Positions 3 to 49,019 of a stretch of 64,000 nt of DNA are shown here, piece after piece. The translations under genes were made by a program, and so were the position numbers. Numbering within the stretch: position 1 is the first letter of the stretch; each line of letters begins with the position of its first letter. The DNA is from an uncultured Alphaproteobacteria bacterium (GTDB lineage Bacteria; Pseudomonadota; Alphaproteobacteria; CAAHEQ01; UBA3637): the NCBI GenBank assembly GCA_905236245.1, contig CAJOPC010000004.1, positions 6,079 through 70,078 of the forward strand, given 5' to 3'. The notes under the pieces were generated by a model. It was not told where the DNA came from. It worked only from the letters and a program-made list of their open reading frames with translations, and did no database searches.

Positions 3-314
3 GTGGTGGATGCACCCTGCTCCGGCTGTGGCACTTGGCGCAGAGCTCCAAATATGAGATGGCATTTAACCGAAAAACAACTGAAACATATTGCCGAATC
101 CCAACGGGAAATTTTAAATCGTGCTGCGGCATATGTGCGTGAAGGCGGACAATTAGCATACATTACATGTTCTATTACAACCGATGAAAACGAAGCACAA
201 GTGGAGCAATTTCTAAAAACTCATCCGAATTATCGGGTCATTAAACAAAAACGCTATTCCCCCGCCCGCACAGGTACAGACGGATTCTTTTTGTGTTTAA
301 TGGAAAAAGAGTAA
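3..314 (+). CDS. C-terminal fragment of a NOL1/NOP2/Sun (RsmB-like) RNA m5C methyltransferase; the 5' end lies outside the window
   Basis: The ORF runs to the window edge. It has the D-A-P-C-S-G-(C)-G active-site motif typical of Sun-family methyltransferases, and a stop at 312-314. Confidence 0.55.
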   Translation: MVDAPCSGCGTWRRAPNMRWHLTEKQLKHIAESQREILNRAAAYVREGGQLAYITCSITTDENEAQVEQFLKTHPNYRVIKQKRYSPARTGTDGFFLCLMEKE

Positions 315-348: not shown

Positions 349-1224
349 TTATTGACATAATGCAAAACTGCCATAGCAGTGGTTTGTAGGAGATATATTT
401 CCACCATAAAACCCTATCGTGGGCGCATCCATGTTAGCACCTGCATTTATAAACCAAAAACCATTAATGTATCCAAAAGCCTGCATTAATTCATCTAGAA
501 CCGTGCTATATCTTACTTTATTCGCGTTAGTATACCAATTACGATCCCACTCACATGTTTGGCCACTAGCACAACATCCCCCAGAGTAATACCCATTTAC
601 TACAAGTGAATCTGAATTACTTTCATAACATTCAAATTTGCTGATATCTAACAAATTCATACCATGAGCCTTACACCAATTATCCGCTGCCCACCATGTT
701 ATCTCTTGCGTGTTTCTCCTTACTAAACCAAGAGTATTTGTTATCTCATCCTCATATTCATCAGCACTCATACAAACTCCTTTATCTGGTCTATCAGGCA
801 ATATCACCGGCGGAGGGCCATCAATGATACGTGCATCCAAATGACAAAAACACTTCTCATATCCATTTTCAACACACCAATCATTACAATCTCTATTACT
901 TATACAATTACCATCTAAATGTGTTTCTGTCCCACAAGGATCTTGTTCATACGATAAATACACATTTCCATTGGCACACACTGTACAAGATCCATCTGAA
1001 TTATGCTCTAAACCAGCTTCACATTTGGCAATACATGTATCATTCCAAACGTCCTCGTCATCTGTGCACACGACTTTGCTTCCCTCACCTCCAATATGCA
1101 AACTAATAGCATCAACACCTGTTCCACGATAAATAGAAGATTTTCGGCTCTTACCACCACCGCCAAAAGCCAACACACTTGTTGCCACCAAAATCGCTGT
1201 TCCAAATAATAAAATCTTTTCCAT
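349..1224 (-). CDS. Secreted cysteine-rich protein, family member P1 (conserved leader plus C-type-lectin-like C-terminal domain)
   Basis: The internal Met MEKILLFGTAILVATSVLAFGGGGKSRKSSIYRGTGVD matches the leader of four other paralogs. The module CTVCANGNVYLSYEQDPCGTET and the motif WWAADNWCKAHGMNLLDIS are shared with P2 and P3. The ATG lies at 1222-1224 (rev). Confidence 0.75.
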   Translation of the reverse strand: MEKILLFGTAILVATSVLAFGGGGKSRKSSIYRGTGVDAISLHIGGEGSKVVCTDDEDVWNDTCIAKCEAGLEHNSDGSCTVCANGNVYLSYEQDPCGTETHLDGNCISNRDCNDWCVENGYEKCFCHLDARIIDGPPPVILPDRPDKGVCMSADEYEDEITNTLGLVRRNTQEITWWAADNWCKAHGMNLLDISKFECYESNSDSLVVNGYYSGGCCASGQTCEWDRNWYTNANKVRYSTVLDELMQAFGYINGFWFINAGANMDAPTIGFYGGNISPTNHCYGSFALCQ

Positions 1225-9343: not shown

Positions 9344-9430
9344 GCCTCTGTGGCGAAATTGGTAGACGCGACAGACTCAAAATCTGTTTCCAGCGATGGA
9401 GTGCTGGTTCAAGTCCGGCCAGAGGTACCA
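9344..9430 (+). tRNA. tRNA-Leu (anticodon CAA) with long variable arm and encoded CCA
   Basis: Acceptor stem GCCTCTG/CAGAGGT. Anticodon loop CT-CAA-AA. Long extra arm. TTCAAGTCC T-loop. The 3' end is ...AGAGGTACCA. Confidence 0.9.
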
Positions 9431-33971: not shown

Positions 33972-36235
33972 AACTTTTAAAAACTCTCTTTTTAACTTTA
34001 TTATTATTGGTACTTCTAGCTGTTAGTGCTATTGGAATTTTCTTGTGGACATTTGATTTAAATCATTATAAAAATTTGGCAGAAACCAAATTGACAGAAT
34101 TGTTAAAACATCCCGTTCAAATTCAAGAGATGACAACCCAGCTGTCATTCATTCCGACAATTTCCATTTCTGGCTTTAAGATTTTAAATAACGAACCTTT
34201 CCAAGAAGAAAAACCATTATTAGACGTACAAAAAATGTCTGCTGAATTGGAATTGATTCCATTACTGAATTCGCAAATCAATATCCATAGAATTAGCATC
34301 GATTCTGCTAATTTGAATTTAATTCAAGAAAAGGATACAAATAACTGGGAAATTAAAACAACGGGAACTTCTTCCTCGCAACAGACAAAGACCGCTTCAC
34401 AAACTAATCAACAAAAGATCAAGTCCGACAATATTCAGTTGAATCTTATTGATATTAAAACACTCAATGTGGCATATACCAAAGATAAAAAAACACAAAA
34501 ACTTGCTGCCAATAAATTACAGCTGAAACAATTACATATCTTAAGCGGTGATTTTGTTTATGAAAATCAAGCAATCAATATCAGCTTGAATACAAGCCCT
34601 GTTTTTGAATTTTTAAATATGAAAAATACCTTTCCAATAGATTTAAAAATAACATCAAAATTATTTAATTTATCTGTTAATGGTAAGGTCACTAATTTAA
34701 AACAACCTTCAAATATACAAGCGGTTATCTCTTTGAGTAGTACCAACCTCAAAAATTCCCTCAATTTTTTCAAAATATCCCATCCGCTTATTCCTTCTCA
34801 AGCCGGACAACTTAACTTGCAATTCAGCGGAGACCAAAAAAAGCTGGATATAAAACAAGCAAATTTTGATATCAATGCTCAAAAAGATTTCTCTTTTACC
34901 GCTCATGGAACATTACGTAATTTGCTTAAAAATCCAACGCTTAGTTTAACAGCAAACGCACGTTTATTAGACAGTAAAACAAGCAAGTTATGGAAAGTTG
35001 CTCCGATGGCGTTAAAAGGAGATTTCACCCTAACCCAAAACAGCGTTAAAGCAACAAAATTAAATATAGAAGCCAATCGCTCTGATATTCAATTATCTGG
35101 AGATTTTTCATGGAAAAAACAACCTTATACTCTGCAATTAGATATGACATCCGAGTATCTGGATTATCGTGATTTCTTCTTGTCAGAGCAATCAACCACT
35201 GCAGCAAATACAGCAACGAAAAAAGGCGCCACCGAAACAACTATCCCCTGGGATTTGCTTAATAAATTCACAGCCACGACAAGCGTTCAAATTAAACACC
35301 TGCAAGCGACAGATATGCTGACAGGGTTGATTAGCATTTCAGCAAAGCCCACCTTAAAGCAAGGACTTTTGCAAGCCCCGTTCGAAGCAAGATTACTTGA
35401 AGGCAATTTAACGGGCGCCCTCTCGGCAAAAGCCGCCACTCAACAAATTGAAATGGTGCTAGCCACGAATAAATTAAATCTAGACGGCATCCGTCCAGTT
35501 GGGCAACAAGTTCAAAATCTGATTCTTAATTCTAAAATAGAGCTAGCCTCCAAAGGCGATACAAAAACAAGTATTTTGAAAAATTTAAAGGGTCATATAA
35601 CTGCACAAACACAACAAGGACGAATCTTAAATCCATGGTTTATTAACCTTGCAAAAACGTTAACGACCTATAGAAAGCGCAAAAATTCTGCTCTCAATTC
35701 TTCTGATGAAAAGATAACAATTACCTGTGCGGCAGCAAATTTGAATATCAAACAGGGAGTTATTATAGGCCAGGATCAAATTGCGTTAGAAACAAATGTT
35801 TTGAACATCGTCGCTGGGGGAACTATTAACCTGGCGGAACAAACAGTGAATATCAACGCCTATCCTTCTTTACCGTTTGAAGGAAAGTTAGATGAAGTTT
35901 TGTCTTTATCCAAACTTATCCATATCACCGGCCCCTTTAATAAATTGACCTCTCAAGTGGATGCCACACAGGCAGCAGTCAGCTTATTAGAAAAAGGCTT
36001 GAATAAATGGACAAAGAATAATTCTTCGACAAATAATTTATCATTGAACAGAGGACAATTATGTCAAAATGTTCTAGGAACGACCACGACATCAAAAGCA
36101 ACAGATAAAAAGGAAACGCAACCTAAAAAACAAACAACTCAGGCCGCTTCCGGCTCAAACCAAAAGAAATCTGCACAAGATCAATTCAAACAACAATTAG
36201 CAGATTCTTTATTGAAGGCCTTAAGCTCTAAATGA
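33968..36235 (+). CDS. asmA: AsmA family outer-membrane biogenesis protein
   Basis: N-terminal TM anchor. 755 aa of beta-rich, low-complexity periplasmic sequence typical of AsmA-like proteins. Confidence 0.7.
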   Translation: MKLLKTLFLTLLLLVLLAVSAIGIFLWTFDLNHYKNLAETKLTELLKHPVQIQEMTTQLSFIPTISISGFKILNNEPFQEEKPLLDVQKMSAELELIPLLNSQINIHRISIDSANLNLIQEKDTNNWEIKTTGTSSSQQTKTASQTNQQKIKSDNIQLNLIDIKTLNVAYTKDKKTQKLAANKLQLKQLHILSGDFVYENQAINISLNTSPVFEFLNMKNTFPIDLKITSKLFNLSVNGKVTNLKQPSNIQAVISLSSTNLKNSLNFFKISHPLIPSQAGQLNLQFSGDQKKLDIKQANFDINAQKDFSFTAHGTLRNLLKNPTLSLTANARLLDSKTSKLWKVAPMALKGDFTLTQNSVKATKLNIEANRSDIQLSGDFSWKKQPYTLQLDMTSEYLDYRDFFLSEQSTTAANTATKKGATETTIPWDLLNKFTATTSVQIKHLQATDMLTGLISISAKPTLKQGLLQAPFEARLLEGNLTGALSAKAATQQIEMVLATNKLNLDGIRPVGQQVQNLILNSKIELASKGDTKTSILKNLKGHITAQTQQGRILNPWFINLAKTLTTYRKRKNSALNSSDEKITITCAAANLNIKQGVIIGQDQIALETNVLNIVAGGTINLAEQTVNINAYPSLPFEGKLDEVLSLSKLIHITGPFNKLTSQVDATQAAVSLLEKGLNKWTKNNSSTNNLSLNRGQLCQNVLGTTTTSKATDKKETQPKKQTTQAASGSNQKKSAQDQFKQQLADSLLKALSSK

Positions 36236-36522
36236 TTACACGCCACATTAAAGTCATCGGCCGTGTTCAAGGTATCGGATTTCGCCGATGGGCTGAAGAT
36301 ATTGCCATAAAATTAAATTTATCGGGATGGGTTCGCAATAGCTCGGATGGTTCCGTGGAAATTATGGTGCAAGGCCCAGAAAATGAAGTCAATAAATTTT
36401 TAGCATCCTGTCTTAATGGACCAGCCTTTGCCCATGTACTAGGCGTTCAACCTGTTATTGTTCCAACTGCTAGCCCTGCTCCCATAGAACAAGGAATATT
36501 TAAAATTATTGCCAGTGTATAG
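36232..36522 (+). CDS. acyP: Acylphosphatase
   Basis: VIGRVQGIGFRRW signature and GWVRNSSDGSVE. 96 aa. Confidence 0.85.
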   Translation: MITRHIKVIGRVQGIGFRRWAEDIAIKLNLSGWVRNSSDGSVEIMVQGPENEVNKFLASCLNGPAFAHVLGVQPVIVPTASPAPIEQGIFKIIASV

Positions 36523-36540
36523 AAAAAATAAAAAATCCCC

Positions 36541-36867
36541 TCAAATCGTAACAAGATTTTTGGGAACCGCAACACTCTTTAAATACATCACATCACATAC
36601 ATATTCACGAACAACAGAGCCATTATTTGTTTCTACAATTAATATCTGTGTTTTTAGGCGCAAGGCCTTTCGTATAGCAGGGTGAATATAATCCAACACA
36701 ACTGTGTTATGATCATTGCGATACAACAAAGCATGTTCGCCCCCATTGTAAACAAGTTTTGGGCGATCCGCATCTTCCAAACGCGCCCTGATCAAAATCA
36801 TCAACTTTCCGGACTCATTTTGTAAGATGTTAAAATTCTTTTCCTGTTCAATAAGCGGTTTTGTCAT
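36541..36867 (-). CDS. Hypothetical protein (108 aa)
   Basis: ORF only. Confidence 0.35.
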   Translation of the reverse strand: MTKPLIEQEKNFNILQNESGKLMILIRARLEDADRPKLVYNGGEHALLYRNDHNTVVLDYIHPAIRKALRLKTQILIVETNNGSVVREYVCDVMYLKSVAVPKNLVTI

Positions 36868-36985
36868 CTAAGCTCCTTAAATCACCACTTTTATAGAATA
36901 AAATAGAAAAAAACAAATTGCAACACCTTTTTTTGATTTATTATCAGAAATCAATTTACCCTATTATAAACGAATTATTTAGAAA

Positions 36986-37016
36986 ACAAAAAAAATCGCC
37001 CGAAAAGGGCGATTTA
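36986..37016. terminator. Bidirectional rho-independent terminator
   Basis: A-run, then the ATCGCCC-gaaaa-GGGCGAT hairpin, then a T-run. Confidence 0.65.
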
Positions 37017-37060
37017 TAATGATACATAAAACCTAAATTGATTTTTTCAGCAAACGAATT

Positions 37061-37456
37061 TTAGCGTTTATTTGCTTTAACCATCTCTGCCGCAGTTCTA
37101 ATAAGTCCCATATTTTGCTCTTCGGTTATCCGCTCTTCTTCTTCCGTTTGACGTCTATAGGTTCCATCTTGTCCTCTAAACAACTTGACGTATGAATTGG
37201 GAACTGTTTCCCCCTTCTCATCCACTTTGCGAATCACCATGTGATCTGGTTTAGACTCATCTTTCTTTTCGGAACCACTCATATTCCATGTTGTCATTTC
37301 TACATTACCACTAAGGTCAACGTCAGCGGGAATACCGCTAACAACTATTTCGTGACGGTCGCTTCTATATTTTTCTCCCCAAATAGCTGTCTGAGTTTTT
37401 CCTACTTGACGAACTCTTTCTAACTTATAACCCCCTGTTAATGTATATCCTGGCAT
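37061..37456 (-). CDS. Hypothetical protein (131 aa)
   Basis: ORF with an RBS-like sequence. I recognise no family. Confidence 0.4.
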   Translation of the reverse strand: MPGYTLTGGYKLERVRQVGKTQTAIWGEKYRSDRHEIVVSGIPADVDLSGNVEMTTWNMSGSEKKDESKPDHMVIRKVDEKGETVPNSYVKLFRGQDGTYRRQTEEEERITEEQNMGLIRTAAEMVKANKR

Positions 37457-37560
37457 TTTATTTCTCCTTTCCTTTAATCGGCAACTCCTATTATATCACA
37501 TATTGGTGAAAAAGTCAAATTTTTGAATATGTTGTGCTTTATAACGAGCACTACCAAAAG

Positions 37561-37590
37561 AAAAGCCCTCATTTGAAAGAGGGCTATAAT
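37561..37590 (-). terminator. Terminator downstream of tRNA-Phe
   Basis: On the minus strand: AGCCCTC-tttcaaatg-AGGGCT followed by TTTTCTTTT. Confidence 0.65.
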
Positions 37591-37593
37591 AAA

Positions 37594-37669
37594 TGGTGCC
37601 TGGAGACGGAATCGGACCGCCGACACAGGGATTTTCAGTCCCTTGCTCTACCAACTGAGCTATCCAGGC
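37594..37669 (-). tRNA. tRNA-Phe (anticodon GAA), CCA encoded
   Basis: The reverse complement reads GCCTGGATAGCTCAGTTGGTAGAGCAAGGGACTGAAAATCCCTGTGTCGGCGGTTCGATTCCGTCTCCAGGCACCA. It has a 7-bp acceptor stem and a CT-GAA-AA anticodon loop, and closely resembles E. coli tRNA-Phe. Confidence 0.92.
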
Positions 37670-37718
37670 CGGTTGTAGTGTTTATTATACACATTTTTAA
37701 ACGAATTGCAAGGACTTT

Positions 37719-38300
37719 TTATTTTTTCTGTTCGGCCTGCCACTCTGACCTCAATTTTGACCATATTTGAGTATCGCGAAAAGACTGCCACCGCTTGTCC
37801 CAGATATTCGAACGCAGCACACCCTCCAAACGATAACCGCACCGCTTTGGCACATTTATTGAGCGCACATTTTCGACATCACAACCAATCATAATCCGAT
37901 TGACACCTTTCTTAAATGCGGTATTTTCCAAAGCACTCACAGCCTCTGACATATAACCATGTCCAACAGCGTCATCGCTAAGCCAATACCCAATTTCGGC
38001 AGACTTATGTTTTTCACTGTAATCCATCAAATCAACACACCCCAAAAGAGCTTTTGTTTTTTTATTGCGAATTAAATAAGCAAAACCTTCACCTTTATCC
38101 CAAGTTTGTGTTTGATTCGTCAACCACGGCAATCTATCCTCCGGCGTTTTAACGCCATCCACCCACGGCAACCAATCGCGTAAAGTCTTGCGAGACAAAT
38201 CAATTTTTTCAAACATTTCTTTGGACAACTCAACAGAGGCGGGATAAGGCCGCACTAAAACAATGCGATCCGATTCAATTTTTGCTGGCATTTTTAACAT
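37719..38300 (-). CDS. GNAT family N-acetyltransferase (RimJ/RimL-like)
   Basis: GNAT fold motifs (IGYWLSDDAVGHGYMSEAV). Confidence 0.65.
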   Translation of the reverse strand: MLKMPAKIESDRIVLVRPYPASVELSKEMFEKIDLSRKTLRDWLPWVDGVKTPEDRLPWLTNQTQTWDKGEGFAYLIRNKKTKALLGCVDLMDYSEKHKSAEIGYWLSDDAVGHGYMSEAVSALENTAFKKGVNRIMIGCDVENVRSINVPKRCGYRLEGVLRSNIWDKRWQSFRDTQIWSKLRSEWQAEQKK

Positions 38301-38349
38301 TTTTATCCCCTAATTTTTTGTACTACTTTTCCATTTTTAAAAATTACTT

Positions 38350-39189
38350 TTACCTACACAATGGTGTAATAAATGGTCCATTTGATTTAGGACGAGAAAA
38401 ATTACCCACATCACTGTTATTAGCCGACACATTAAACATTGCACAGGAATTATCAGCTGAGTAATTAGAGCTGGTCCAAAAACTAACTGGTCCAAAATTT
38501 TGCCTCAGAGCAATAATCACAGCACTATAATGAGAATATACGAAATCTTCATGCTCTGGCAAAATAGTTTTATTCTCACATTGATAACAATTTTCCCAAT
38601 AATTATACCAAGGCCCTGCACTTTGACCAGATACACAACAAGAAGAGTATATACCGGAACCACCAGTAACTAGTGTTGAAGTATCACTCTGATAACAATT
38701 AAACTCGGCCACATCTATTAAAGATTTACCCTGTGCTTTGCACCAATTATCCGCAGACCACCAACTCATCCGTTCATATTTGTTAATGACTTCCCCTAAT
38801 CCTTCTATATTAACAGGGCCAAGCACATCTCCGATAGCGGTACAGGTTCCTGTATTTGGTTGTTCACAATTTGATCCATCCAAATTACAGTATTCGCCCT
38901 CATTACAATCCTCATTACTCTTACAACCATCAAAAATTGTTTCCGTACCACATGGATCTTCTTTGTATGACAAATACACATTACCATTGGCACAAACCGT
39001 ACATTTTCCAAATCTATCCTCTAACACGCCAGCGGCACAAGCGCCACCTTTTCCATTGATACGCACATCAACAGAGTCCACTCCTACTCCGCGATATACG
39101 GAGCTCTTACGACTTTTCCCGCCACCACCAAAGGCCAAAACACTTGTTGCCATTAAAAGTGCTGTTCCAAATAATAATATTTTATTCAT
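38350..39189 (-). CDS. Secreted cysteine-rich protein, family member P2 (conserved leader plus CTLD-like C-terminal domain)
   Basis: MNKILLFGTALLMATSVLAFGGGGKSRKSSVYRGVGVDS leader. The first ~105 aa match P3 at all but one position, after which the sequences diverge. WWSADNWCKAQGKSLIDVAEF motif. AAGGAG RBS. Confidence 0.8.
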   Translation of the reverse strand: MNKILLFGTALLMATSVLAFGGGGKSRKSSVYRGVGVDSVDVRINGKGGACAAGVLEDRFGKCTVCANGNVYLSYKEDPCGTETIFDGCKSNEDCNEGEYCNLDGSNCEQPNTGTCTAIGDVLGPVNIEGLGEVINKYERMSWWSADNWCKAQGKSLIDVAEFNCYQSDTSTLVTGGSGIYSSCCVSGQSAGPWYNYWENCYQCENKTILPEHEDFVYSHYSAVIIALRQNFGPVSFWTSSNYSADNSCAMFNVSANNSDVGNFSRPKSNGPFITPLCR

Positions 39190-39236
39190 AAAAACTCCTT
39201 TTTTAAAAATAAAACTCGCCCTGATAACTTAAAGTC

Positions 39237-39265
39237 ATTATATGTCATCCATTTTTAAATAGCAA
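39237..39265 (-). promoter_or_regulatory. Consensus sigma70 promoter of P2 (TTGCTA-17 bp-TATAAT on minus strand)
   Basis: On the minus strand, TTGCTA (39265-39260) and TATAAT (39242-39237). The identical module is found upstream of P3. Confidence 0.6.
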
Positions 39266-39296
39266 CAAAAAAGCCCGAGATAATCTCGGGCTTTTC
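39266..39296 (-). terminator. Rho-independent terminator of P3
   Basis: GCCCGAG-ataatc-CTCGGGC hairpin flanked by A and T runs. Confidence 0.7.
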
Positions 39297-39311
39297 ATGA
39301 GGACTATCGGG

Positions 39312-40034
39312 TTACTTACACAATGCAGGAGCATTCATGCCTTGTCCACCCTGTCGGCCATCTCTTGGGCCAATATATTTATCAAAAGTGCGCACATAAA
39401 CACTCTTACAGATATCTATACCATCATTTACCCAAAACCAATTATAACTTATCTTATCCAAAACTGGTTGCCAATCTAAATGACATCCAGAACTTTCTTG
39501 ACACGTTTCACCATTGATAATGACACCACTAACACTGGAAGGATCAATACCAATATCTTCTAAGCCAATCAACTGTTTTCCCCTAGCAGCACACCAATTT
39601 TCAGCAGCCCAATAGGAAAAAGAATCTTGGCTAATTATACAACCATCATCAAAAGTTGTTTTAATATCATTCTCATTTAATGGAGAACACACGCCTGTAT
39701 CTGGCTGTTCACAATTACTACCTGTCAAATTGCAATATTCATTTTCTCCACATTGTACATTACTTACACAACCTGTTACACTTGTTTCCGTACCACATGG
39801 ATCTTCTTCGTATGACAAATACACATTACCATTGGCACAAACCGTACATTTTCCAAATCTATCCTCTAACACACCAGCAGCACAAGCACCACCTTTTCCA
39901 TTAATATGCACATCAACAGAGTCCACTCCTACTCCGCGATATACGGAGCTCTTACGACTTTTCCCACCTCCACCAAAGGCCAAAACACTTGTTGCCATTA
40001 AAAGCGCTGTTCCAAATAATAATACTTTGTTCAT
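39312..40034 (-). CDS. Secreted cysteine-rich protein, family member P3 (tandem paralog of P2)
   Basis: Leader and first ~105 aa match P2 at all but one position (K/V at the fourth residue). Divergent C-terminus still containing YWAAENWCAARGKQLIGL. Confidence 0.8.
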   Translation of the reverse strand: MNKVLLFGTALLMATSVLAFGGGGKSRKSSVYRGVGVDSVDVHINGKGGACAAGVLEDRFGKCTVCANGNVYLSYEEDPCGTETSVTGCVSNVQCGENEYCNLTGSNCEQPDTGVCSPLNENDIKTTFDDGCIISQDSFSYWAAENWCAARGKQLIGLEDIGIDPSSVSGVIINGETCQESSGCHLDWQPVLDKISYNWFWVNDGIDICKSVYVRTFDKYIGPRDGRQGGQGMNAPALCK

Positions 40035-40070
40035 AAAAGCTCCTTTTTTAAAAATAAAACTCGCCTTGAT

Positions 40071-40231
40071 GAGAGGCGGTTGGAAGCTCGAAAACTATCA
40101 GATAGAATAGTGCGACATATTTCGGTGTTAACACCTTTATTTTGTCACCTTCCAACCACGTGATTGGAATTTTTCGTCCTTGGACGCTATCTGAAAGGCT
40201 TTCGAGACCTTAGATCGGGAATCACCCAATC
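40071..40231 (-). other. About 160-bp structured MITE-like insert in the P3 5'UTR (absent from the otherwise identical P2 leader)
   Basis: Flanked by sequence shared with the P2 leader. It contains a perfect 12-bp palindrome GGTGTTAACACC, a near-palindrome TTCCAACCACGTGATTGGAA, and outer inverted arms CTCGAAA...CAGATAG / CTATCTG...TTTCGAG. Confidence 0.55.
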
Positions 40232-40238
40232 CAAAGTC

Positions 40239-40267
40239 ATTATATGTCATCCATTTTTAAATAGCAA
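40239..40267 (-). promoter_or_regulatory. Consensus sigma70 promoter of P3 (same module as P2)
   Basis: TTGCTA...TATAAT, identical to the P2 promoter sequence. Confidence 0.6.
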
Positions 40268-40269
40268 CA

Positions 40270-40300
40270 AAAAAAGCCCCGATTACTCAGGGCTTTTATT
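40270..40300 (-). terminator. Terminator of the PFOR gene
   Basis: AGCCCC-gattactca-GGGCT hairpin plus T-run, immediately downstream of the stop at 40316. Confidence 0.6.
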
Positions 40301-40315
40301 TATTATCGGAAAGAT

Positions 40316-43300
40316 TTATTTTTCTTCCCCGGCCAGTTGTTTGTAGTATGCCCAACGGTCATCCACTTGCTTTTGAGCCTGTTTCAACAATTCCTCATAG
40401 TGTTCCGGATCTTGTTGTTTCACATACTTAAAGCGTGTTTCTGTGGCCATAAAATCGGCGACAGGAATGCTTGGCTTACTATCTAACTGGAATGGATTTT
40501 TACCTTCCGCTTTCAGGCGCGGATCAAAACGATACAATGGCCACAAGCCGGATTTCACCGCCAATTGTTGATGGTTCAATCCTTCCTTACCGATATCATA
40601 CCCATGGTTGATACAGTGGCTGTAAGCAATGATCAAGCTTGGTCCATTAAAGGATTCGGCTTCGTTCATGGCTTTCAAAGCTTGAGCATCATTAGCACCC
40701 AAGGAAATGCTTGCCACATAAACTTCGCCCGAACTCATGGCAATGGCGCCCAAGTCTTTGCGTGGCAAGCTGCTGCCCGACACGGCAAACTTAGCGGACG
40801 CACCAATCGGTGTTGCTTTAGAACGTTGTCCACCAGTGTTGGAATAAACCTCGGTATCCATGACCATAATGTTCACATTCTTGCCAGAGTACAAAGCGTG
40901 ATCTAAACCACCATAGCCGATATCATAGGCCCAACCGTCACCGCCCAAAATCCACACGGATTTTTTAACGAGATAGTCGGCATGTTCGCTCATCAATTTC
41001 ACACGATCACCAGACAAGGTTGCCAATTTTTCTTTCAACGCTTTCACACGATCACGTTGAGCGGCAATACCTTCCTCTGTTGTTTGATCGGCATTTAAAA
41101 TACTGTCAGCCAATTCGGCACCAACTTGGTCTTTCAATTCGCCCAATAACTGAATTGCAAATTCAATTTTGGAATCAACCGAAGTACGCATACCTAAACC
41201 AAACTCAGCATTGTCTTCAAACAAACTGTTTGCCCAAGCGGGGCCTCTGCCTTCTTCATTTTGTGCATACGGTGTTGTCGGTAAGTTACCGCCATAGATG
41301 GAGGAACAACCTGTTGCATTGGCCACCAACAAACGATCACCAAAGAGCTGCGTCATCATCTTGACATACGGCGTTTCGCCACACCCAGCGCAAGCGCCAG
41401 AGAATTCAAACAATGGACGCATGAGTGCTACACTCTTCACCGCTTTTGGATTCAACTTGCTGCGATCCGCATCTGGCAATTGCATAAAGAAGTCAAAGTT
41501 CTTGATTTCTTGATCAATATGCTTTTCAATTGGCTCCATAACAAGCGTGTTTTTCGCTTTCATTGGGCAAACCTGCGTACACAAAGAACACCCTGTGCAA
41601 TCTTCTGGAGCTACCTGAACAATAAACTTGTTACCGGCAAAATCAGGTGTCTTATAATCCGAGGACTTAAAGCCCTCCGGCGCATTTGCCAATGTTTCTG
41701 GTTTAGCCACTTTTGCACGAATAGCGGCATGTGGACACACAGACACACATTTACCGCATTGGATACATGTTTCTGGATCCCAGCAAGGAATCTCCGTTGC
41801 CACACGGCGTTTTTCATAGCGAGCGGTATCGCTTGGCCACGTCCCATCCACAGTCCATTCAAACGCGGAGACAGGTAATTCATTTCCTTTTTCTTCAATG
41901 ATTTTACCCGTCACATTACGAATCAACTCTGGCGCAGTCGTTGGTACACCCGGTTGACGATGAATCTTGGAGTTTGCTTCTCCGATCTTCACTTCATACA
42001 AATGCTCCAAACTGGCATCCACGGCCTTGATGTTAGCATCCACCACTTCTTGACCTTTTTTCATATAGGTTTTTGTAATGGCTGCTTTAATCTTTTCAAT
42101 TGCCACATCCTTTGGCAACACGCCGGAAATAGCAAAGAAACAAGCCTGCATGATTGTGTTGATTCTGCGACCCATGCCTGTCTTACCGGCCACATCCACC
42201 GCATCAATGGCATACATTTTAATCTTCTTATCAATGATCTCTTGTTGCACCTCAATCGGTAAACTGTCCCATACTTGATCGGCAGGGGTTTGTGTATTCA
42301 ACAAGAACACAGAATTTGGTGCAGCCACCGCCAACAAATCAATCTTATGCAAGAATGGTTCATGGTGACAAGCCACAAAGTCAGCGGATGTAATCAAATA
42401 CGGCGCCTTAATCGGGCTCTTACCAAAGCGCAAGTGAGATGTTGTCATCGCACCCGACTTTTTGGAATCATACACAAAGTATGCTTGCCCATACATATCA
42501 TCGGCATCTGCAATAATTTTGATAGAGTTCTTATTTGCACCAACAGTACCATCAGAACCCAAACCAAAGAAGATACAACGACTGAGGTCTTGGGCTGGTA
42601 AATTCCAAGTGGCATCATAATCCAAAGATCCATTTGTCACATCATCATTGATACCAACGGTGAAGTGATTCTTTTCCACGTTTTCAAACACAGCTTTTGC
42701 CATAGCGGGCGTGAATTCTTTGGAGGAAATTCCATAACGGCCACCCAACACTTTTGGCATAGCGCGGCCATTGACAGCCCCTTCGGCCAAAGCGGATACA
42801 ACATCCAAGTACAAAGGTTCACCAACGGAACCAGCTTCTTTTGTTCTGTCTAATACTGTCACATATTTCACGGATTCAGGCAAAGCCGCCACAAATGCTT
42901 TGGATGGGAACGGACGATACAAATGTACCGCCACAACACCATATTTACCACCATTGGCATTCAAGGCTTTTACTGTTTCAGATAATGTTTCTACACCGGA
43001 ACCCATAGCAACCACAACATGTTCAGCATCTTTGGCGCCAACATAATCCACAATATGATAAGCACGGCCAGTGACTTCTTCAAACTTGCGCATACATTTT
43101 TCAACGATTTCTGGGCAAGCCTGATAATACTTGTTTGCAGCTTCTTTAATTTGGAAGAATACATCCGGATTCTGAGCTGTACCACGAACCTTTGGATGAT
43201 CCGGCGTCAAAGCGTTCTTACCTGTAAAGTCTGTTGGAATATCCGCCATCAAAGCCTTCAAATCATCATCACTCATCATATTGATTTTGTTGATTTCGTG

Positions 43301-43828
43301 GGATGTGCGGAATCCATCAAAGAAATGCAAGAACGGAATGCGTGACAAATATGTGGACATTTGCGCCACCGCGGCCAAATCATGTGCTTCCTGAACCGAG
43401 TTGGAAGCCAACATTGCAAATCCCGTTTGACGGCAAGCCATCACATCCGAGTGATCACCAAAAATGGACAAAGCATGTCCTGCAACAGTACGAGCCGCCA
43501 CATGCATCACAAATGGCAACAATTCGCCAGCAATCTTGTACATATTCGGAATCATCAACAACAAACCTTGGCTGGCGGTATAAGTTGTGGTCATAGATCC
43601 AGCTTGCAAAGCCCCATGCACGGCACCGATAGCTCCAGCTTCAGATTGCATTTCCAAAACTTGCGGCACTTTGCCCCAAATGTTTTGTTGTTTACCGGCC
43701 GCCCAAGCGTCCGCCCATTCGCCCATTGGAGAAGATGGCGTAATCGGATAAATAATGGAAAGTTCGTTCAATTTATATGCCACTGTAGCAGCGGCTTCGT
43801 TTGCATCAAGCATTTTTGTTTTAGACAT
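40316..43828 (-). CDS. nifJ: Pyruvate:ferredoxin (flavodoxin) oxidoreductase, single-polypeptide PFOR
   Basis: About 1170 aa. Two 4Fe-4S ferredoxin motifs (CIQCGKCVSVCP, CTGCSLCTQVCP). TPP-binding GDGW motif. The start is set at MSKTKMLD (43826-43828 rev). Confidence 0.92.
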   Translation of the reverse strand: MSKTKMLDANEAAATVAYKLNELSIIYPITPSSPMGEWADAWAAGKQQNIWGKVPQVLEMQSEAGAIGAVHGALQAGSMTTTYTASQGLLLMIPNMYKIAGELLPFVMHVAARTVAGHALSIFGDHSDVMACRQTGFAMLASNSVQEAHDLAAVAQMSTYLSRIPFLHFFDGFRTSHEINKINMMSDDDLKALMADIPTDFTGKNALTPDHPKVRGTAQNPDVFFQIKEAANKYYQACPEIVEKCMRKFEEVTGRAYHIVDYVGAKDAEHVVVAMGSGVETLSETVKALNANGGKYGVVAVHLYRPFPSKAFVAALPESVKYVTVLDRTKEAGSVGEPLYLDVVSALAEGAVNGRAMPKVLGGRYGISSKEFTPAMAKAVFENVEKNHFTVGINDDVTNGSLDYDATWNLPAQDLSRCIFFGLGSDGTVGANKNSIKIIADADDMYGQAYFVYDSKKSGAMTTSHLRFGKSPIKAPYLITSADFVACHHEPFLHKIDLLAVAAPNSVFLLNTQTPADQVWDSLPIEVQQEIIDKKIKMYAIDAVDVAGKTGMGRRINTIMQACFFAISGVLPKDVAIEKIKAAITKTYMKKGQEVVDANIKAVDASLEHLYEVKIGEANSKIHRQPGVPTTAPELIRNVTGKIIEEKGNELPVSAFEWTVDGTWPSDTARYEKRRVATEIPCWDPETCIQCGKCVSVCPHAAIRAKVAKPETLANAPEGFKSSDYKTPDFAGNKFIVQVAPEDCTGCSLCTQVCPMKAKNTLVMEPIEKHIDQEIKNFDFFMQLPDADRSKLNPKAVKSVALMRPLFEFSGACAGCGETPYVKMMTQLFGDRLLVANATGCSSIYGGNLPTTPYAQNEEGRGPAWANSLFEDNAEFGLGMRTSVDSKIEFAIQLLGELKDQVGAELADSILNADQTTEEGIAAQRDRVKALKEKLATLSGDRVKLMSEHADYLVKKSVWILGGDGWAYDIGYGGLDHALYSGKNVNIMVMDTEVYSNTGGQRSKATPIGASAKFAVSGSSLPRKDLGAIAMSSGEVYVASISLGANDAQALKAMNEAESFNGPSLIIAYSHCINHGYDIGKEGLNHQQLAVKSGLWPLYRFDPRLKAEGKNPFQLDSKPSIPVADFMATETRFKYVKQQDPEHYEELLKQAQKQVDDRWAYYKQLAGEEK

Positions 43829-43894
43829 GTTTTTCCTTTCAAAAATTGATGGCAATTTTATACAACTTTTTTTCATAAATTGCAAGCATAAAAT

Positions 43895-43928
43895 CTTAAA
43901 AAAATCCCCATCTTTTTGACGGGGATTT
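43895..43928 (-). terminator. Terminator of P4
   Basis: ATCCCCgtcaaaaagatGGGGAT hairpin plus T-run on the minus strand. Confidence 0.6.
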
Positions 43929-43998
43929 GAACAAAACATTTTTCCTATATTCTCGTTTGATAATTCACAACAATTTCACCTACACAAAAATATAAAAA

Positions 43999-44715
43999 TC
44001 ATTGATTACATGTGTCAGGAGACCAACTACCCCCAGGGGTCACTTCACCAGCACAACATCCCCAAGACCAACTTCCACCATCACACTCCGGCCCATGTCG
44101 AGATAAACAATATGGGGTTGTATCTTTTGGACAACAAATATAGCCTATACACACATTGTTTTCATCGTACTTGTAACAAACGGGTTCAGTTCCCGGAGTG
44201 GTACAACATAAATCTGATCCATCTAGCCCTTTACCTTCAAATACTTCACCATTACAACATGTATAATTATCTCCATATGAAAAACGACCACTCAAATAAG
44301 GCTTTCCTCCACTGGGGCAACACAAAGACCAGTTATAAACACAATTTCCATCAGCATCACGAGTAAAACAAAAAAGGGTGCCGGTGCAACACATTGAAGC
44401 CCACGACCCTACTTGGCGAGAAGCCGATTCTCCTGCTGGGCAACAAAAATTCAATTCTTCATTACAACACTGGTATTCGCCTGATTCGTTCTGACTACAT
44501 ACATTATCACCATAACAACAACCTTTACCGCACTTAACACCATCTGAGCACGTCTCCTCTGAATCACTATCTTTTCCACTAAAATGCACACCGATAGAAT
44601 CAACGCCTACGCCACGATAAACGGAAGATTTGCGACTCTTTCCTCCTCCGCCGCCAAAGGCTAAAACAGAGGTTGCTACCAAAATTGCCATTCCAAATAA
44701 TAATACCTTTTTCAT
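43999..44715 (-). CDS. Secreted cysteine-rich protein, family member P4 (conserved leader plus tandem CC-x-G repeat C-terminal domain)
   Basis: MKKVLLFGMAILVATSVLAFGGGGGKSRKSSVYRGVGVDSIGVHF leader. The C-terminus contains many CC pairs (CCYGDN, CCNEE, CCPAGE, CCTGT, CCPSGG, CCNGE, CCTTPG, CCPKD, CCAGE). AGGAG RBS. It lies 18 nt downstream of the preceding gene. Confidence 0.8.
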   Translation of the reverse strand: MKKVLLFGMAILVATSVLAFGGGGGKSRKSSVYRGVGVDSIGVHFSGKDSDSEETCSDGVKCGKGCCYGDNVCSQNESGEYQCCNEELNFCCPAGESASRQVGSWASMCCTGTLFCFTRDADGNCVYNWSLCCPSGGKPYLSGRFSYGDNYTCCNGEVFEGKGLDGSDLCCTTPGTEPVCYKYDENNVCIGYICCPKDTTPYCLSRHGPECDGGSWSWGCCAGEVTPGGSWSPDTCNQ

Positions 44716-44733
44716 ATTAATCTCCTAAAAAAT

Positions 44734-45156
44734 TTAATGGTGATGATGATGGTGCCTGATTGTCCGCAAATAATCCTGTCTTTCACGATACGAATCTTGA
44801 TAAGTGGATTCATCACGTTCCATTTCGGCATGCTCTTGAATACATGTCCATAACGCCTCTTTTGAAATAGCGCTATCTTTAAAGTAATTCTCACAAGTCG
44901 TGTTTAACTTATCAATTTTTTGCTCAATTCTATCTGCCAATTCTTTGCTAACGGAACCTGACATATGATACAAACGCCTAAATAATTTTTCATAAAACAA
45001 ATGGCACTTCATATTCTGTTCTGAACCAGGCTGAAAACCCAACACTTCTTCACATTGACGATTCAAAGCTTCTTGATAACGTGCCTCACCAATTCGATCA
45101 GAGTCTGCCATCGGGTTAAGTAACAAAGAAGTTAATAAAATACTTCCCCAAAACAC
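44734..45156 (-). CDS. Small secreted protein with a natural C-terminal hexahistidine tail (putative metal-binding), co-transcribed with P4
   Basis: GTG start with an AAGGAGG RBS. Hydrophobic N-terminus. Ends ...TIRHHHHHH-stop. The likely promoter TTGCAT-17-TATTAT is upstream. Confidence 0.6.
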   Translation of the reverse strand: MFWGSILLTSLLLNPMADSDRIGEARYQEALNRQCEEVLGFQPGSEQNMKCHLFYEKLFRRLYHMSGSVSKELADRIEQKIDKLNTTCENYFKDSAISKEALWTCIQEHAEMERDESTYQDSYRERQDYLRTIRHHHHHH

Positions 45157-45261
45157 AAAAGCCTCCTTTTTTTAATGATTTACATGAAAGTATAATACCA
45201 TACATGAAATAAAATGCAAGCACTTATTTCGTTTTCGGGAATCATTTGAAATTATTTTAAA

Positions 45262-46410
45262 TCAATAATTAGATTTTCCTTGATTAAAAAAACCTAAATG
45301 CCGGTTTGTCTTACCTATTTGATTAAAAGAAACTTCCACCATTTTGGTGTAATTAATTCTTTTATCTTTATCTTTAGAAATAATTTGCTCTACACTTACT
45401 CTGGATTCACCAACTTTAGCAAAAATACCATGGAAATACCGCTTAAAAGAAGCAACCAACTCACGCAACTGAACCGGATTCGATGCTTCTCGGACTAAGT
45501 CCGATGCAAACGAAGTCACAGCAGCGCGCTTTAAATCAAGCAACTGTCGTTCCCGCGCGGCGGGAGAAAGATGAATGACTTTATCATACAATCCTTCATC
45601 AATCAATTTAGCAGATTTCAAATACTCCAAAGCGGTTACAATACGCACCTGAGCTCTTTGAAATAAACACTCTTCCTTTTTACCATGAATGTATTGGAAA
45701 GCAACCGGTCGCAAACCATAATCACGAATATCCGCCAAGGCTTTATAAATTCGAAAATTATTTAATTTCTGCAAAGCGCTAGAAGCGCGCATTGTTCTAA
45801 CTCCTAAAGGGGAACGACCTTTTCCGATCGCCATTTTATTCATCCACACCCAACCCGCATCTTCATCAACAGGAGTCGCCCGTTGGCACATTAACTCATC
45901 TACAACACTCACCTTTCCCTTTTGATCTGTGCGCACTTCTTCCATATACAATGCAGTGCTTAAGGCTGCAACCAATTTAATTGGTTTGTCCAAACGAAGA
46001 CATAAATTTATATAAGCATCAAAATTTTGATCAGCCAAATACTTTAAAAGCAAGGAAACTTTTTTTGGGGGCGTAGAAATAAACGCAGCTCCCGCATTCT
46101 CTGGATTCTGAATAGAATTTTGAATTTCTTCCGTTACCATGGAATCTTGCCAACGTTCCATATGATTAAATAATGCTTCATAATCCACAGGATCCACCAA
46201 TCCAAAAACAGCAAACAAAGGTAAATCAGAATAGCTATGATACGCCCGCCACGCAACCAAATCTTTGGCATGCGCTTTCGAATCAAAAAACTTTTTCATG
46301 ATCCTTCTCTGAGACAACCGAACTCGTTCTGAATTCAATGTATCTCTGGCAACTTCTACGCGTTGTATCCATTGAAAATCTCGTTTATCATTTGCCATCA
46401 TACACTCCAA
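45262..46410 (-). CDS. Hypothetical protein (382 aa)
   Basis: Long ORF. I recognise no family. Confidence 0.45.
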   Translation of the reverse strand: MECMMANDKRDFQWIQRVEVARDTLNSERVRLSQRRIMKKFFDSKAHAKDLVAWRAYHSYSDLPLFAVFGLVDPVDYEALFNHMERWQDSMVTEEIQNSIQNPENAGAAFISTPPKKVSLLLKYLADQNFDAYINLCLRLDKPIKLVAALSTALYMEEVRTDQKGKVSVVDELMCQRATPVDEDAGWVWMNKMAIGKGRSPLGVRTMRASSALQKLNNFRIYKALADIRDYGLRPVAFQYIHGKKEECLFQRAQVRIVTALEYLKSAKLIDEGLYDKVIHLSPAARERQLLDLKRAAVTSFASDLVREASNPVQLRELVASFKRYFHGIFAKVGESRVSVEQIISKDKDKRINYTKMVEVSFNQIGKTNRHLGFFNQGKSNY

Positions 46411-46517
46411 ACAAAACTAATTGGTCGCTATTGTACAAGATTTTTTAATTATGTCAAGTTTTTACATACTATAAAAAGCCCCACCAGTTGGCAGGGCTTT
46501 CGTATTGTCTGAAAAAA

Positions 46518-47702
46518 TTACTTTTCCAAAATGGCAACACCCGGCAAAGATTTGCCTTCCATCCATTCCAAGAAAGCACCACCGGCCGCAGACACATAGG
46601 TCATGTCGGCTTTTACACCTGCTTTTTTTAAAGCGGAAACGGTATCACCACCGCCTGCGACGGATGTCAAAGCGCCGGCCTTTGTTTGATCGGCCACCAC
46701 TTTGGCAATTTCGTTTGTGGCTTTGTCAAAAGGTTTGATTTCAAATGCGCCCACCGGGCCGTTCCAAATCAATGTCTTTGCATTTTTAATCACATCAGCA
46801 AAAGCAGCCACAGATTTTTCTCCAATATCTAACAATACTTTGCCGGCAGGTACCGCATTTACATCGGATGTATGGGGCTCTTGACCTTCAGCAAAGGCAT
46901 CGGCCCATACCAAATCTACAGGCAAAACAATTTTGCAATTACCGGCATTAGCCAAAATGTTTTTAGCTGTATCAATCATATCTGGTTCAACCAAAGAGCC
47001 TTCGCCCATTGGAATTCCTTGTGCAGCCAAAAAAGTATGAGCCATACCGCCACCAATGAGCAAGTAATCTACTTTCTTCACCAAGTTACCCAATAAATCC
47101 AATTTCGTGGAAACTTTGCTACCACCCACCAAAGCAACGGCTGGATGGACAGGGTTACCCAAAGCTTTGTCCAAAGCCTCCAATTCTTCCTGCATCAAAC
47201 GACCTGCGCCATTTGGCAACAAATGTGCCATACCTTCTGTGGAGGCATGCGCACGATGTGCCGTTGAGAAAGCATCATTGATATAAATATCCATACCATG
47301 TGCCAAACTTTCGGCGAATTCGCGATCGTTGGCTTCTTCTCCTTCATAGAAGCGTAAGTTTTCCAACAAAATAACTTCGCCTGGTTGCATAGCTGCTACA
47401 GCAGCATCACGAGCTTCGCCCACACAATCGTCAATGAATTTCACGGAAACACCTGCCGCTTTTTCCAAAGCAGGAGCCAAAAAAGCCATAGAAAATTCCG
47501 GATTCTTTTGACCTTTCGGACGACCAAAGTGACTAGCCACCACGGCTTTACCACCATGTTCAATAATATATTTCAAAGTCGGCACAAAACGATCGATACG
47601 AGTTGTATCTGTGATTTGTCCATCCTTGGCAGGCACATTCAAGTCTGCACGAATAAAAACTGTTTTACCGTTAAAATCAAAATTATCCAAAGTATTAAAC
47701 AT
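46518..47702 (-). CDS. pgk: Phosphoglycerate kinase
   Basis: MFNTLDNFDFNGKTVFIRADLNVP N-terminus and conserved Pgk motifs throughout. The start is set at the internal Met. Confidence 0.95.
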   Translation of the reverse strand: MFNTLDNFDFNGKTVFIRADLNVPAKDGQITDTTRIDRFVPTLKYIIEHGGKAVVASHFGRPKGQKNPEFSMAFLAPALEKAAGVSVKFIDDCVGEARDAAVAAMQPGEVILLENLRFYEGEEANDREFAESLAHGMDIYINDAFSTAHRAHASTEGMAHLLPNGAGRLMQEELEALDKALGNPVHPAVALVGGSKVSTKLDLLGNLVKKVDYLLIGGGMAHTFLAAQGIPMGEGSLVEPDMIDTAKNILANAGNCKIVLPVDLVWADAFAEGQEPHTSDVNAVPAGKVLLDIGEKSVAAFADVIKNAKTLIWNGPVGAFEIKPFDKATNEIAKVVADQTKAGALTSVAGGGDTVSALKKAGVKADMTYVSAAGGAFLEWMEGKSLPGVAILEK

Positions 47703-47822
47703 TTTTGTCCTTTCTTTTGTTAAAATAATTGTGTCCATTGTTTTAATCTTTTTTTAAAAAAATTGCAAGAGGAATTTATTTGAAGCCTTAACAAAAATCC
47801 CCCGACAAATCGGGGGAAAATA

Positions 47823-48737
47823 TTACAGGACACACGTATCGGGTTCATTTTTTGATCCTGGGGTAACTGTTCCAGGACAACATCTCCAAGAGGCACCACC
47901 ACAACATCCCTCATATCGGGAGACACAATAAGGCGTTTCTCCTTCACTACAACATGCTGCTTGATAATAGTAATTTTGTTGAATAAAAAACGATGTTACA
48001 CAATCTGCCTTGCCACATGCATATCCATATCCTCTACATTTTTCTCCGTTGGTTTCATATTCTGCACAATATCCTTTTTCTCCCTCTGCACAACAAATAT
48101 GTACAGTACAATTACCTGCATCATCATACTCCGCACAAACTGGTTTTTTCCCATCATAACAGCACAAATCAGCCCCATCCACGCCTTTCTCTTTATAAAC
48201 TTTTCCTCCATTAGAACAACACATATATTGATCTCCATAAGAAAATTTACCATTTATATAAGGCTCTCCATCACAACATAAATACTCTTTAGTACCATCA
48301 TCACGTTCATAAGGGCCATATACTTTCCCTCCAGTTGGGCAACAAGAAGTAGACGTACAATTATCTTCTGCATCTTTATAACTGCAAAACAATTTCCCAG
48401 CACAGCAAGTCGTCTCCCAATATCCTCTGAAGATACGATATGCTCCACCACTTATTGGGCAACAATGATTTAATTCTTCACTGCAGCACTGATACTCGCC
48501 AGACTCATTCTGCTTGCACACATTATCACCATAACAACAACCGCTGCCACATTTGATACCATCAGAACAGGTCTCTTTTCCTGAATCGTCATCTTTTCCA
48601 TTAAAATGTACACCGATAGAATCAATACCTGTGCCGCGGTAGACAGATGCCTTTCGACTTTTTCCGCCCCCACCACCAAAGGCAAAAACCGATGTTGCCA
48701 CCAAAATTGCCGTTCCGAATAATAAAACTTTTTTCAT
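47823..48737 (-). CDS. Secreted cysteine-rich protein, family member P5 (conserved leader plus CC-x-G repeat domain, P4-like)
   Basis: MKKVLLFGTAILVATSVFAFGGGGGKSRKASVYRGTGIDSIGVHFNGKDDDSGKETCSDGIKCGSGCCYGDNVC parallels P4. The C-terminus is longer and repeat-rich. Confidence 0.8.
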   Translation of the reverse strand: MKKVLLFGTAILVATSVFAFGGGGGKSRKASVYRGTGIDSIGVHFNGKDDDSGKETCSDGIKCGSGCCYGDNVCKQNESGEYQCCSEELNHCCPISGGAYRIFRGYWETTCCAGKLFCSYKDAEDNCTSTSCCPTGGKVYGPYERDDGTKEYLCCDGEPYINGKFSYGDQYMCCSNGGKVYKEKGVDGADLCCYDGKKPVCAEYDDAGNCTVHICCAEGEKGYCAEYETNGEKCRGYGYACGKADCVTSFFIQQNYYYQAACCSEGETPYCVSRYEGCCGGASWRCCPGTVTPGSKNEPDTCVL

Positions 48738-49000: not shown

Positions 49001-49019
49001 TTTCGATTTTTACCCGATA

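Follow-up and report, generated by a model that had tools for sequence, protein, structure and literature searches.

The genes P2 and P3 lie one behind the other on the minus strand of contig CAJOPC010000004.1 from an uncultured Alphaproteobacteria bacterium, of which a stretch of 64,000 nucleotides (nt), referred to here as the window, was analysed. Both code for members of a family of cysteine-rich secreted proteins, and P3 is situated near the end of a pyruvate:ferredoxin oxidoreductase gene (position 40316). The two are tandem duplicates, the repeated unit comprising an upstream terminator hairpin, whose stem sequence differs between the copies, followed by the same promoter (39190..39311 and 40035..40315). 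By alignment and blastn, positions 40035-40070 upstream of P3 correspond to 39190-39225 upstream of P2 at 94%, and positions 40233-40260 to 39231-39258 at 100%. Between these blocks, on the minus strand, the P3 leader has 162 nt (40071-40232), where the P2 junction has only 5 nt of unrelated sequence. The original prediction for this locus had noted such a block of about 160 bp between otherwise identical upstream regions. The block and the shared promoter are indeed present, while the regions proved to be near-identical only, given the unlike terminator stems and the unrelated nucleotides of P2. The block is described here as one copy of a conserved cis-acting leader RNA, apparently undescribed to date, which from its sequence and that of its relatives probably acts as a riboswitch-like conditional attenuator.

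The features of the leader, read on the gene strand, are listed in Table 1. Transcription most likely starts at hairpin A, at about position 40232, and the span from this predicted start to the U run is approximately 185 nt. Helix E encloses F1, F2 and G as well as the 3′ strands of B2 and B1, with F1 and F2 being linked by the conserved unpaired strands AAAAUAAR and RAAUAU. Hairpin T (CGCCTCTCATCAAGGCG and AGTTTTATTT at 40078..40062) has five pairs, four of them G-C, and its first C is the last base of X′. Being a G+C-rich hairpin followed by a U run, it has the form of an intrinsic terminator, and this is its predicted function. The 211-nt P3 leader folds at -75.5 kcal/mol compared to -45.2 ± 4.5 kcal/mol for shuffled sequences (z = -6.7, with 0 of 200 shuffles as good), in agreement with the structured nature originally predicted for it. 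When pseudoknots are left out of the calculation, the window leader has its energy minimum, -68.4 kcal/mol, in a state with D, B and T.

Table 1. Coordinates of the P3 leader elements and of the P2 and P3 genes in the window.
Feature	Position	Strand	Details
Sigma-70-like promoter	40239..40267	-	TTGCTA (40262-40267), 17-nt spacer, TATAAT (40239-40244); consensus scan
Hairpin A	40212..40232	-	GGATTGGG, TGATT loop, CCCGATCT; loop complementary to T loop
Hairpin H	40195..40211	-	AAGG (40208-40211) with CCTT (40195-40198); loop is the B1 5′ strand, CTCGAAA (40200-40206)
B2 5′ strand	40187..40193	-	CAGATAG; long-range helix
Hairpin C	40175..40186	-	CGTC CAAG GACG, followed by a conserved A-rich linker
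Hairpin D	40150..40169	-	X TTCCAATC (40162-40169) with antiX GGTTGGAA (40150-40157); 20-bp near-palindrome TTCCAACCACGTGATTGGAA
Three-way junction closed by helix E	40078..40157	-	antiX GGTTGGAAG (40149-40157) with X′ CTTCCAACC (40078-40086)
Helix F1 and hairpin F2	40112..40148	-	F1 GTGACA (40143-40148) with TGTCGC (40112-40117); F2 is GGTGTTAACACC (40124-40135)
Hairpin G	40094..40111	-	ACTAT (40107-40111) with ATAGT (40094-40098); loop is the B2 3′ strand, CTATCTG (40099-40105)
B1 3′ strand	40087..40093	-	TTTCGAG, directly 3′ of hairpin G
Hairpin T, intrinsic-terminator-like	40062..40078	-	CGCCT CTCATCA AGGCG; terminator scan
U run	40050..40061	-	Directly 3′ of T
Shine-Dalgarno and start	40029..40045	-	AAGGAG (40040-40045); P3 ATG (40032-40034)
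P3 gene	39312..40034	-	240 aa
P2 gene	38350..39189	-	279 aa
P2 leader	39190..39265	-	Same promoter, without the element; only the 3′ half of T (ATCAGGGCGAG) and the U run

Relatives of the element were sought with a degenerate pattern, derived from three members and scanned over one genome per GTDB species. At least 120 loci were identified, nearly all of them in metagenome-assembled genomes (MAGs) of Alphaproteobacteria from rumen, gut and faeces, where approximately eight would be expected by chance by the author's own estimate from the information content of the pattern and the size of the collection. Following the removal of near-duplicates, 101 members were left. The covariance model of the family, R1 (168 positions, 39 pairs), gave 105 and a further 27 hits in about 1 Mb, scoring 34-151 bits, which brings the family to about 130 copies. 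Several loci possess two or three copies, some of the extra ones having been missed by the pattern, and some assemblies have many, an example being JAZSBR01 with seven loci. The members are 40-70% alike, their helices being kept through compensatory changes. Four pattern loci outside the Alphaproteobacteria seemed to be chance hits, two of which were confirmed as real by R1. These two, L088:7192-7358(-) and L110:175-332(-), are clear members (83 and 77 bits) from MAGs labelled Kiritimatiellaeota and Deferribacteraceae, and they may be the result of mis-binning or of spread or transfer beyond the Alphaproteobacteria.

The search for further copies suggested in the original prediction has thus been productive in related genomes, where diverged leader copies with conserved structure occur, and not in the window itself. 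There, no second copy was detected with blastn, nhmmer or R1 at default filters over its whole length, nor with R1 with filters off over 36000-50000. A weak R1 match at 36988-37037(-) of 17.6 bits is an ordinary intrinsic terminator, TCGCCCTTTTCGGGCGA with a T run, which resembles the T stem. Two pattern scans of viral contigs gave no match or chance matches, with 15 hits to the outer-stem pattern having unrelated interiors.

Pairs were counted on an alignment of 105 members that was built with the model and fitted to the nested structure; a MAFFT alignment mis-registered B1 and B2, and a pair matrix with model-based realignment was used in its place. For the nested set of helices (B1, B2, C, D, F1, F2 and T), 94.2% of cells are paired versus 35-48% when the partners are slid. 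Changes on both sides are present in 34 of the 39 pairs and none of 500 shuffles attains the observed values, although sequence relatedness inflates such shuffle statistics. The alternative set (H, C, E, F1, F2 and G) is 95.8% paired, with compensatory changes in 25 of 32 pairs. With regard to the individual helices, compensatory changes are present in every pair of B1 (7/7, 99.6% paired), F1 (6/6, 96%), H (4/4, 96.7%), C (4/4, 97%) and F2 (4/4, 80%), as well as in five of the six pairs of T (95.5% paired), three pairs of G (98%) and four of the nine pairs of E (99.9%). D is 91% paired, while B2 is 96% paired with all four pair types present. The exchange is well illustrated by one pair of B1, which is GC in 45 members, AU in 38, CG in 17 and UA in five.

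An alignment-independent test, in which the duplex energy of a strand with its own partner was compared to that with the partners of other members, gave the same picture. Own and foreign energies were -9.5 and -4.2 kcal/mol for hairpin A, -9.1 and -2.9 kcal/mol for B1, -7.6 and -1.3 kcal/mol for B2, and -7.7 and -4.3 kcal/mol for F1. The duplexes of C, D, H and T also prefer their own partner, and four negative-control pairings were flat. The complementarity between the loops of A and T covaries as well (own -3.7, foreign -2.35, p = 7e-7), with at least five contiguous pairs in 74% of own pairings versus 41% of foreign ones; examples of such loops are UGAUGAG/CUCAUCA, UUGGUG/CACCAA and UGAUAA/UUAUCA. 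In some members the A loop reads CUGAUGA, which is hammerhead-like; a ribozyme was rejected on account of the covariation of this loop with the T loop and the lack of a match to any ribozyme model. A direct reading of the sequences shows G-U pairs in hairpin A that are compatible with the gene strand only, and the family alignment has conserved unpaired A and U columns.

The element thus has the covariation-supported conserved structure expected of a riboswitch. Several of its helices coincide with repeats already noted in the original prediction. The perfect palindrome GGTGTTAACACC at 40124-40135 is hairpin F2, and the 20-bp near-palindrome TTCCAACCACGTGATTGGAA at 40150-40169 is hairpin D, formed by X and antiX. 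The outer arms make up B1 (CTCGAAA at 40200-40206, TTTCGAG at 40087-40093) and B2 (CAGATAG at 40187-40193, CTATCTG at 40099-40105). Palindromes and arms covary as helices across about 100 relatives, in support of the proposal that the transcribed leader of one paralog carries a regulatory RNA structure. A protein-binding palindrome, which had also been considered, becomes superfluous, as both palindromes are RNA hairpins which change in sequence while their pairing stays. An outer hairpin with GACTTT is not supported, lying upstream of the likely transcription start.

Two features of the family point to a switch. The columns of antiX show covariation with X as well as with X′, and hairpin D and helix E cannot coexist because both use the antiX strand; across the family they are near iso-energetic (-16.5 and -16.1 kcal/mol, respectively). 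T and E have three alignment columns in common, and the mean energy of the T hairpin in the family is -9.6 kcal/mol. From the order of their strands, H with B1 and G with B2 would be two H-type pseudoknots with short first loops, which could coexist.

It is probable from these sequence features that the conserved leader is a riboswitch-like conditional attenuator, in which D with T would terminate transcription and E would permit read-through. By default, antiX would pair with the upstream X to form D instead of with X′ to form E, leaving X′ free, so that T would form and RNA polymerase would stop at the U run before reaching the gene. When a putative effector stabilises the core with E, T would be weakened and transcription would read through to the gene. 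The simplest candidate for such an effector would be a small molecule or an ion, on the model of ON riboswitches. The contact between the A and T loops would tie the 5′ end to the terminator and modulate the choice between D and E, and it might either stabilise T or hold it open. P3 is the only gene in the window predicted to be under the control of this leader.

The arrangement of promoter, leader, terminator and gene is found throughout the family. The motif TTGnnn-16..18-TAnnnT is present upstream of hairpin A in 66 of 98 non-redundant members, as against four in a coding-region control, and in 49 of these 66 the distance from the end of the -10 element to the first base of A is 6-8 nt. T is followed by a T run in 115 of 121 members, and a co-oriented open reading frame (ORF) with a Shine-Dalgarno-like site is found within 220 nt downstream in 107 of 121 copies, the unit nearly always lying 20-70 nt upstream of it. 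As in riboswitches, the element is therefore located in the 5′ untranslated region (UTR), and nucleotides of the expression platform also belong to the presumed sensing domain, the overlap in the window copy amounting to 1 nt only.

The genes behind the leader are related to the cell surface. Downstream proteins of at least 80 aa (n = 87) were named by Pfam and NCBIfam, with overlapping counts, as several families per protein are possible. Among them are 14 outer membrane protein beta-barrels, 11 Opacity porins, 9-10 type IV pilins of the PilS/Bundlin type, nine BspA-type leucine-rich repeat adhesins, five group 1 glycosyltransferases, four BamE-like lipoproteins and four autotransporters. A prepilin-like GRSMVEML motif is present in 27 of 107 downstream proteins. 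Most of the remainder have a signal peptide or resemble lipoproteins, the cysteine-rich family of the window being among them, and no metabolic or transport genes are prominent among the downstream genes.

Such a regulon raises the question of what flips the switch. The same leader with its D, E and T helices could respond to a trans-acting macromolecule that coordinates a surface-protein regulon, be it an RNA-binding antiterminator, a specialised NusG paralog, as RfaH, UpxY and LoaP are, or another RNA. In other bacteria, gene sets for surface structures are the kind found under NusG-paralog or leader-dependent antitermination, and here the regulon is confined to pilins, outer-membrane proteins, adhesins and glycosyltransferases for surface polysaccharides, with many copies of the leader per genome. 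The conserved loop-loop contact and the conserved single strands could also be sites of protein or RNA contact. A purely surface-related regulon fits protein-dependent antitermination equally well. On the other hand, the two likely pseudoknots, the three-way junction and its conserved nucleotides are more in keeping with aptamers that bind ligands than with leaders known to be recognised by proteins, and no gene for a partner turned up, no systematic search for one having been made. What favours a riboswitch-like sensor is the size of the fold together with its conserved junction nucleotides and the many copies per genome, and a macromolecular effector is considered rather unlikely.

Processive antitermination systems offer a close comparison in this respect. 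RfaH with its ops or JUMPStart element, UpxY of Bacteroides, the leader hairpin of LoaP and the EAR RNA all involve a conserved element in the long 5′ leaders of pilus, lipopolysaccharide or exopolysaccharide, and adhesin genes, together with terminators. The present element is likewise conserved in the leaders of surface genes and combined with a terminator. However, the signals of those systems are short DNA or RNA sequences or unrelated RNAs, whereas here the conserved unit is an extended fold that covaries, has a terminator of its own and directly precedes single genes. A GGCGGTA sequence, which resembles ops, does occur in some members, but its columns covary as helix F1, and it is not a conserved sequence signal.

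Transcriptional ON riboswitches and orphan riboswitch candidates resemble the element in more respects. These include its position in the 5′ UTR directly after the promoter, a multi-helix junction, pseudoknot-type pairings, conserved unpaired nucleotides and covariation, as well as a terminator that shares nucleotides with the closing helix and a hairpin competing for the same strand. Tandem units are another such likeness, found at one locus, L095. Unusual for a riboswitch is the covarying loop-loop contact from the first hairpin to the terminator loop. The multi-copy riboswitch classes for cyclic di-GMP (c-di-GMP) are the closest functional analogue, as they control pili and surface proteins, and the present family too has numerous leaders per genome, which precede pilin, adhesin and outer-membrane genes. 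No similarity to known riboswitch models in Rfam was found in the element or in the relatives scanned. GEMM-I and c-di-GMP-II gave no match to the element at E ≤ 10, and none was found in 25 related loci. Furthermore, tblastn detected no GGDEF domain in 1.03 Mb (the window and loci L017-L146) with a probe which was validated at 175 bits against PF00990. Signalling by c-di-GMP may therefore be rare or absent in this clade, which argues weakly against c-di-GMP as the ligand.

With Rfam 15, the only matches at the gathering threshold over the whole window were two tRNAs, and no family reached threshold for the element or for the relatives scanned. Below threshold, the cmscan check proposed in the original prediction gave as best match sRNA-Xcc1 (RF02221) at positions 40070-40157, with 35.1 bits where the gathering score is 53 (E = 1.4e-4, 401 nt searched) and an alignment to model positions 1-87. 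This RNA folds into a three-way junction of about 87 nt, in which an outer stem of 9 bp encloses two hairpins, the first of them carrying an A-rich internal loop, and which includes a U-rich joining strand. The window copy likewise has an outer stem enclosing two hairpins, namely E around F1/F2 and G. The present family differs in being twice as long, with an extra upstream domain (A, H, B, C and X) containing pseudoknot-type pairings and with a separate terminator, and also in its hosts and contexts. Membership was rejected, since all scores lie below 53 bits, most members are unmatched and the reciprocal search was negative: with filters off, R1 gave at most 5.5 bits on L147-L149, the loci with blastn matches to the sRNA-Xcc1 consensus. 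A distant kinship of the three-way junction with sRNA-Xcc1 is possible.

This match bears on another explanation, namely that the block is a stand-alone gene for a trans-acting small RNA (sRNA), perhaps a divergent sRNA-Xcc1, which has its own promoter and terminator and merely happens to lie upstream of P3. The unit does contain a promoter and a terminator, and the sub-threshold similarity over the E/F/G domain is shared by four close relatives of the same sub-clade (30.9-36 bits). However, none of the eight members searched at a permissive E-value reaches 53 bits, five scoring 31-36 bits and three having no match at E ≤ 1; a further 18 loci gave nothing at the gathering threshold, and the match to Rfam covers the 3′ half of the element only. 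The position of the unit shortly before a co-oriented ORF with a Shine-Dalgarno site fits a leader, and the genomic context is unlike that of sRNA-Xcc1. In published descriptions the latter precedes symE in integron cassettes of Xanthomonas and an ORF6N gene in APSE phages, and it also lies in prophage regions (10.1101/2025.06.18.660453, 10.1101/2020.03.17.996009). Taken together, a stand-alone sRNA gene is improbable at this locus.

It is worth mentioning that the published contexts of sRNA-Xcc1 are compatible with a leader role too. At L148:660-830, on plasmid pDsulf-L2-2 of Nitratidesulfovibrio vulgaris, a true sRNA-Xcc1-like sequence is followed by a T-rich run, with a Shine-Dalgarno site and an ORF approximately 50 nt downstream, so that from its sequence the "sRNA" at this locus looks like a 5′ leader. 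Within the present family, L095:3400-3990(-) has two complete promoter-leader-terminator units in tandem, of which only the second has an ORF behind it. The first may stand alone as an sRNA-like orphan, or the two may be arranged as tandem riboswitches are.

With respect to the literature, no description of the motif was found in a search that covered some of the published catalogues and not all of them, full-text matches to its conserved strings being unrelated primers only. The catalogue of Fremin and Bhatt (2021; PMC8040213) mentions no Alphaproteobacteria or pilin motif, and the first 200 of its 408 supplementary files were without a match. A 2026 preprint on intergenic features also contained no relevant mention.

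The difference between P2 and P3 had been taken in the original prediction as an insertion into P3, possibly of a miniature inverted-repeat element (MITE) that hopped into the leader. The presence of the block in one duplicate and its absence from the other between near-identical flanks, its internal inverted repeats and the many copies in related genomes would all suit such an element. A MITE is nevertheless highly improbable. No terminal inverted repeats or target-site duplication are evident by eye at 40071/40232, the window has a single copy in 64 kb, and the diverged copies elsewhere, rather than being near-identical, keep their helices by compensatory changes, with a promoter at a fixed distance upstream and, in the great majority, a co-oriented ORF close downstream. 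In addition, the homology of P2 and P3 stops within the loop of T, with P2 having the end of the T loop and the 3′ strand as they are conserved in the family, without the 5′ strand. This orphan 3′ half of the terminator in the P2 leader is ATCAGGGCGAGTTTT by alignment and blastn.

A deletion in P2 accounts for these observations instead. The leader of P0005 (locus L019), a paralog only 34% identical to P3, contains a diverged copy of the element (nhmmer E = 1.7e-5) with compensating changes on both strands of several helices, and L021 has two further copies, one before P0006 and one before a 285-aa paralog. As the element is also present in the leaders of distant paralogs, it is old in the cysteine-rich gene family. 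Because of the orphan half of T retained in P2 and the diverged copy before P0005, the most parsimonious event would be a 162-nt deletion in which P2 lost the element and half of the terminator. P2 has the same promoter and no attenuator, and it should therefore be expressed constitutively, without attenuation. The P2/P3 pair is in effect a natural experiment, in which one promoter is found with and without the attenuator.

Among the five paralogs of the cysteine-rich secreted family in the window (352..1224, 38350..39189, 39312..40034, 43999..44715 and 47832..48737, all on the minus strand), P3 alone has the leader element. The signal peptide and N-terminal region are near-identical among the five. 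The family of P3 has no match in Pfam, and a search of 5.8 billion proteins gave no more than 11 relatives. The P0006 paralog and its leader (L021:1-8100, and L022) adjoin phage head genes, coding for a capsid and a head-tail connector, as well as a Peptidase_S24 repressor-like gene, and this paralog may be prophage-borne. There are also two tRNA genes in the window, one at 37597..37669(-), just 3′ of the acetyltransferase gene that follows P2, and one at 9344..9427(+).

A number of points weigh against the leader being a riboswitch-like attenuator. The transcription start, the stop at the U run and the switch between folds are predictions from sequence, and the effector, be it a ligand or a protein partner, is hypothetical. 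With the short T of the window and its single base of overlap with E, competition between E and T is weaker than in most members. E is largely invariant, in part because the search pattern fixed it, leaving covariation in fewer than half of its pairs, and the alignment behind the pair counts was itself fitted to the nested structure. The coexistence of the two pseudoknots is a topological argument only. The downstream genes, not being metabolic or transport genes, give no hint of a ligand, and their pattern is also typical of protein-dependent antitermination. Finally, the complete unit without an ORF at L095 is compatible with a stand-alone RNA.

A more far-reaching proposal is that the family represents a new riboswitch class. 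This would be an ON switch that has two pseudoknots and a contact to the terminator loop and that senses a global small-molecule or ion signal. Through dozens of leaders per clade it would set the pilins, porins, adhesins and surface glycosyltransferases that gut and rumen Alphaproteobacteria display, and sRNA-Xcc1 may be a distant minimal relative of it. The proposal is put forward tentatively, the odds being somewhat against it in this full form; were it true, the function of sRNA-Xcc1 would also be explained.

For experimental work, the element provides a testable handle in the form of an RNA of approximately 185 nt with more than 100 natural variants, a choice between D and E, and a terminator as read-out. 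If a ligand exists it would define a new riboswitch class, and if a protein is involved, a new antitermination system. The clade of gut and rumen Alphaproteobacteria concerned is known here only from MAGs. In these bacteria, the occurrence of one RNA fold before genes for pilins, porins, adhesins, glycosyltransferases and secreted cysteine-rich proteins suggests that a single shared signal acts over the whole surface repertoire.

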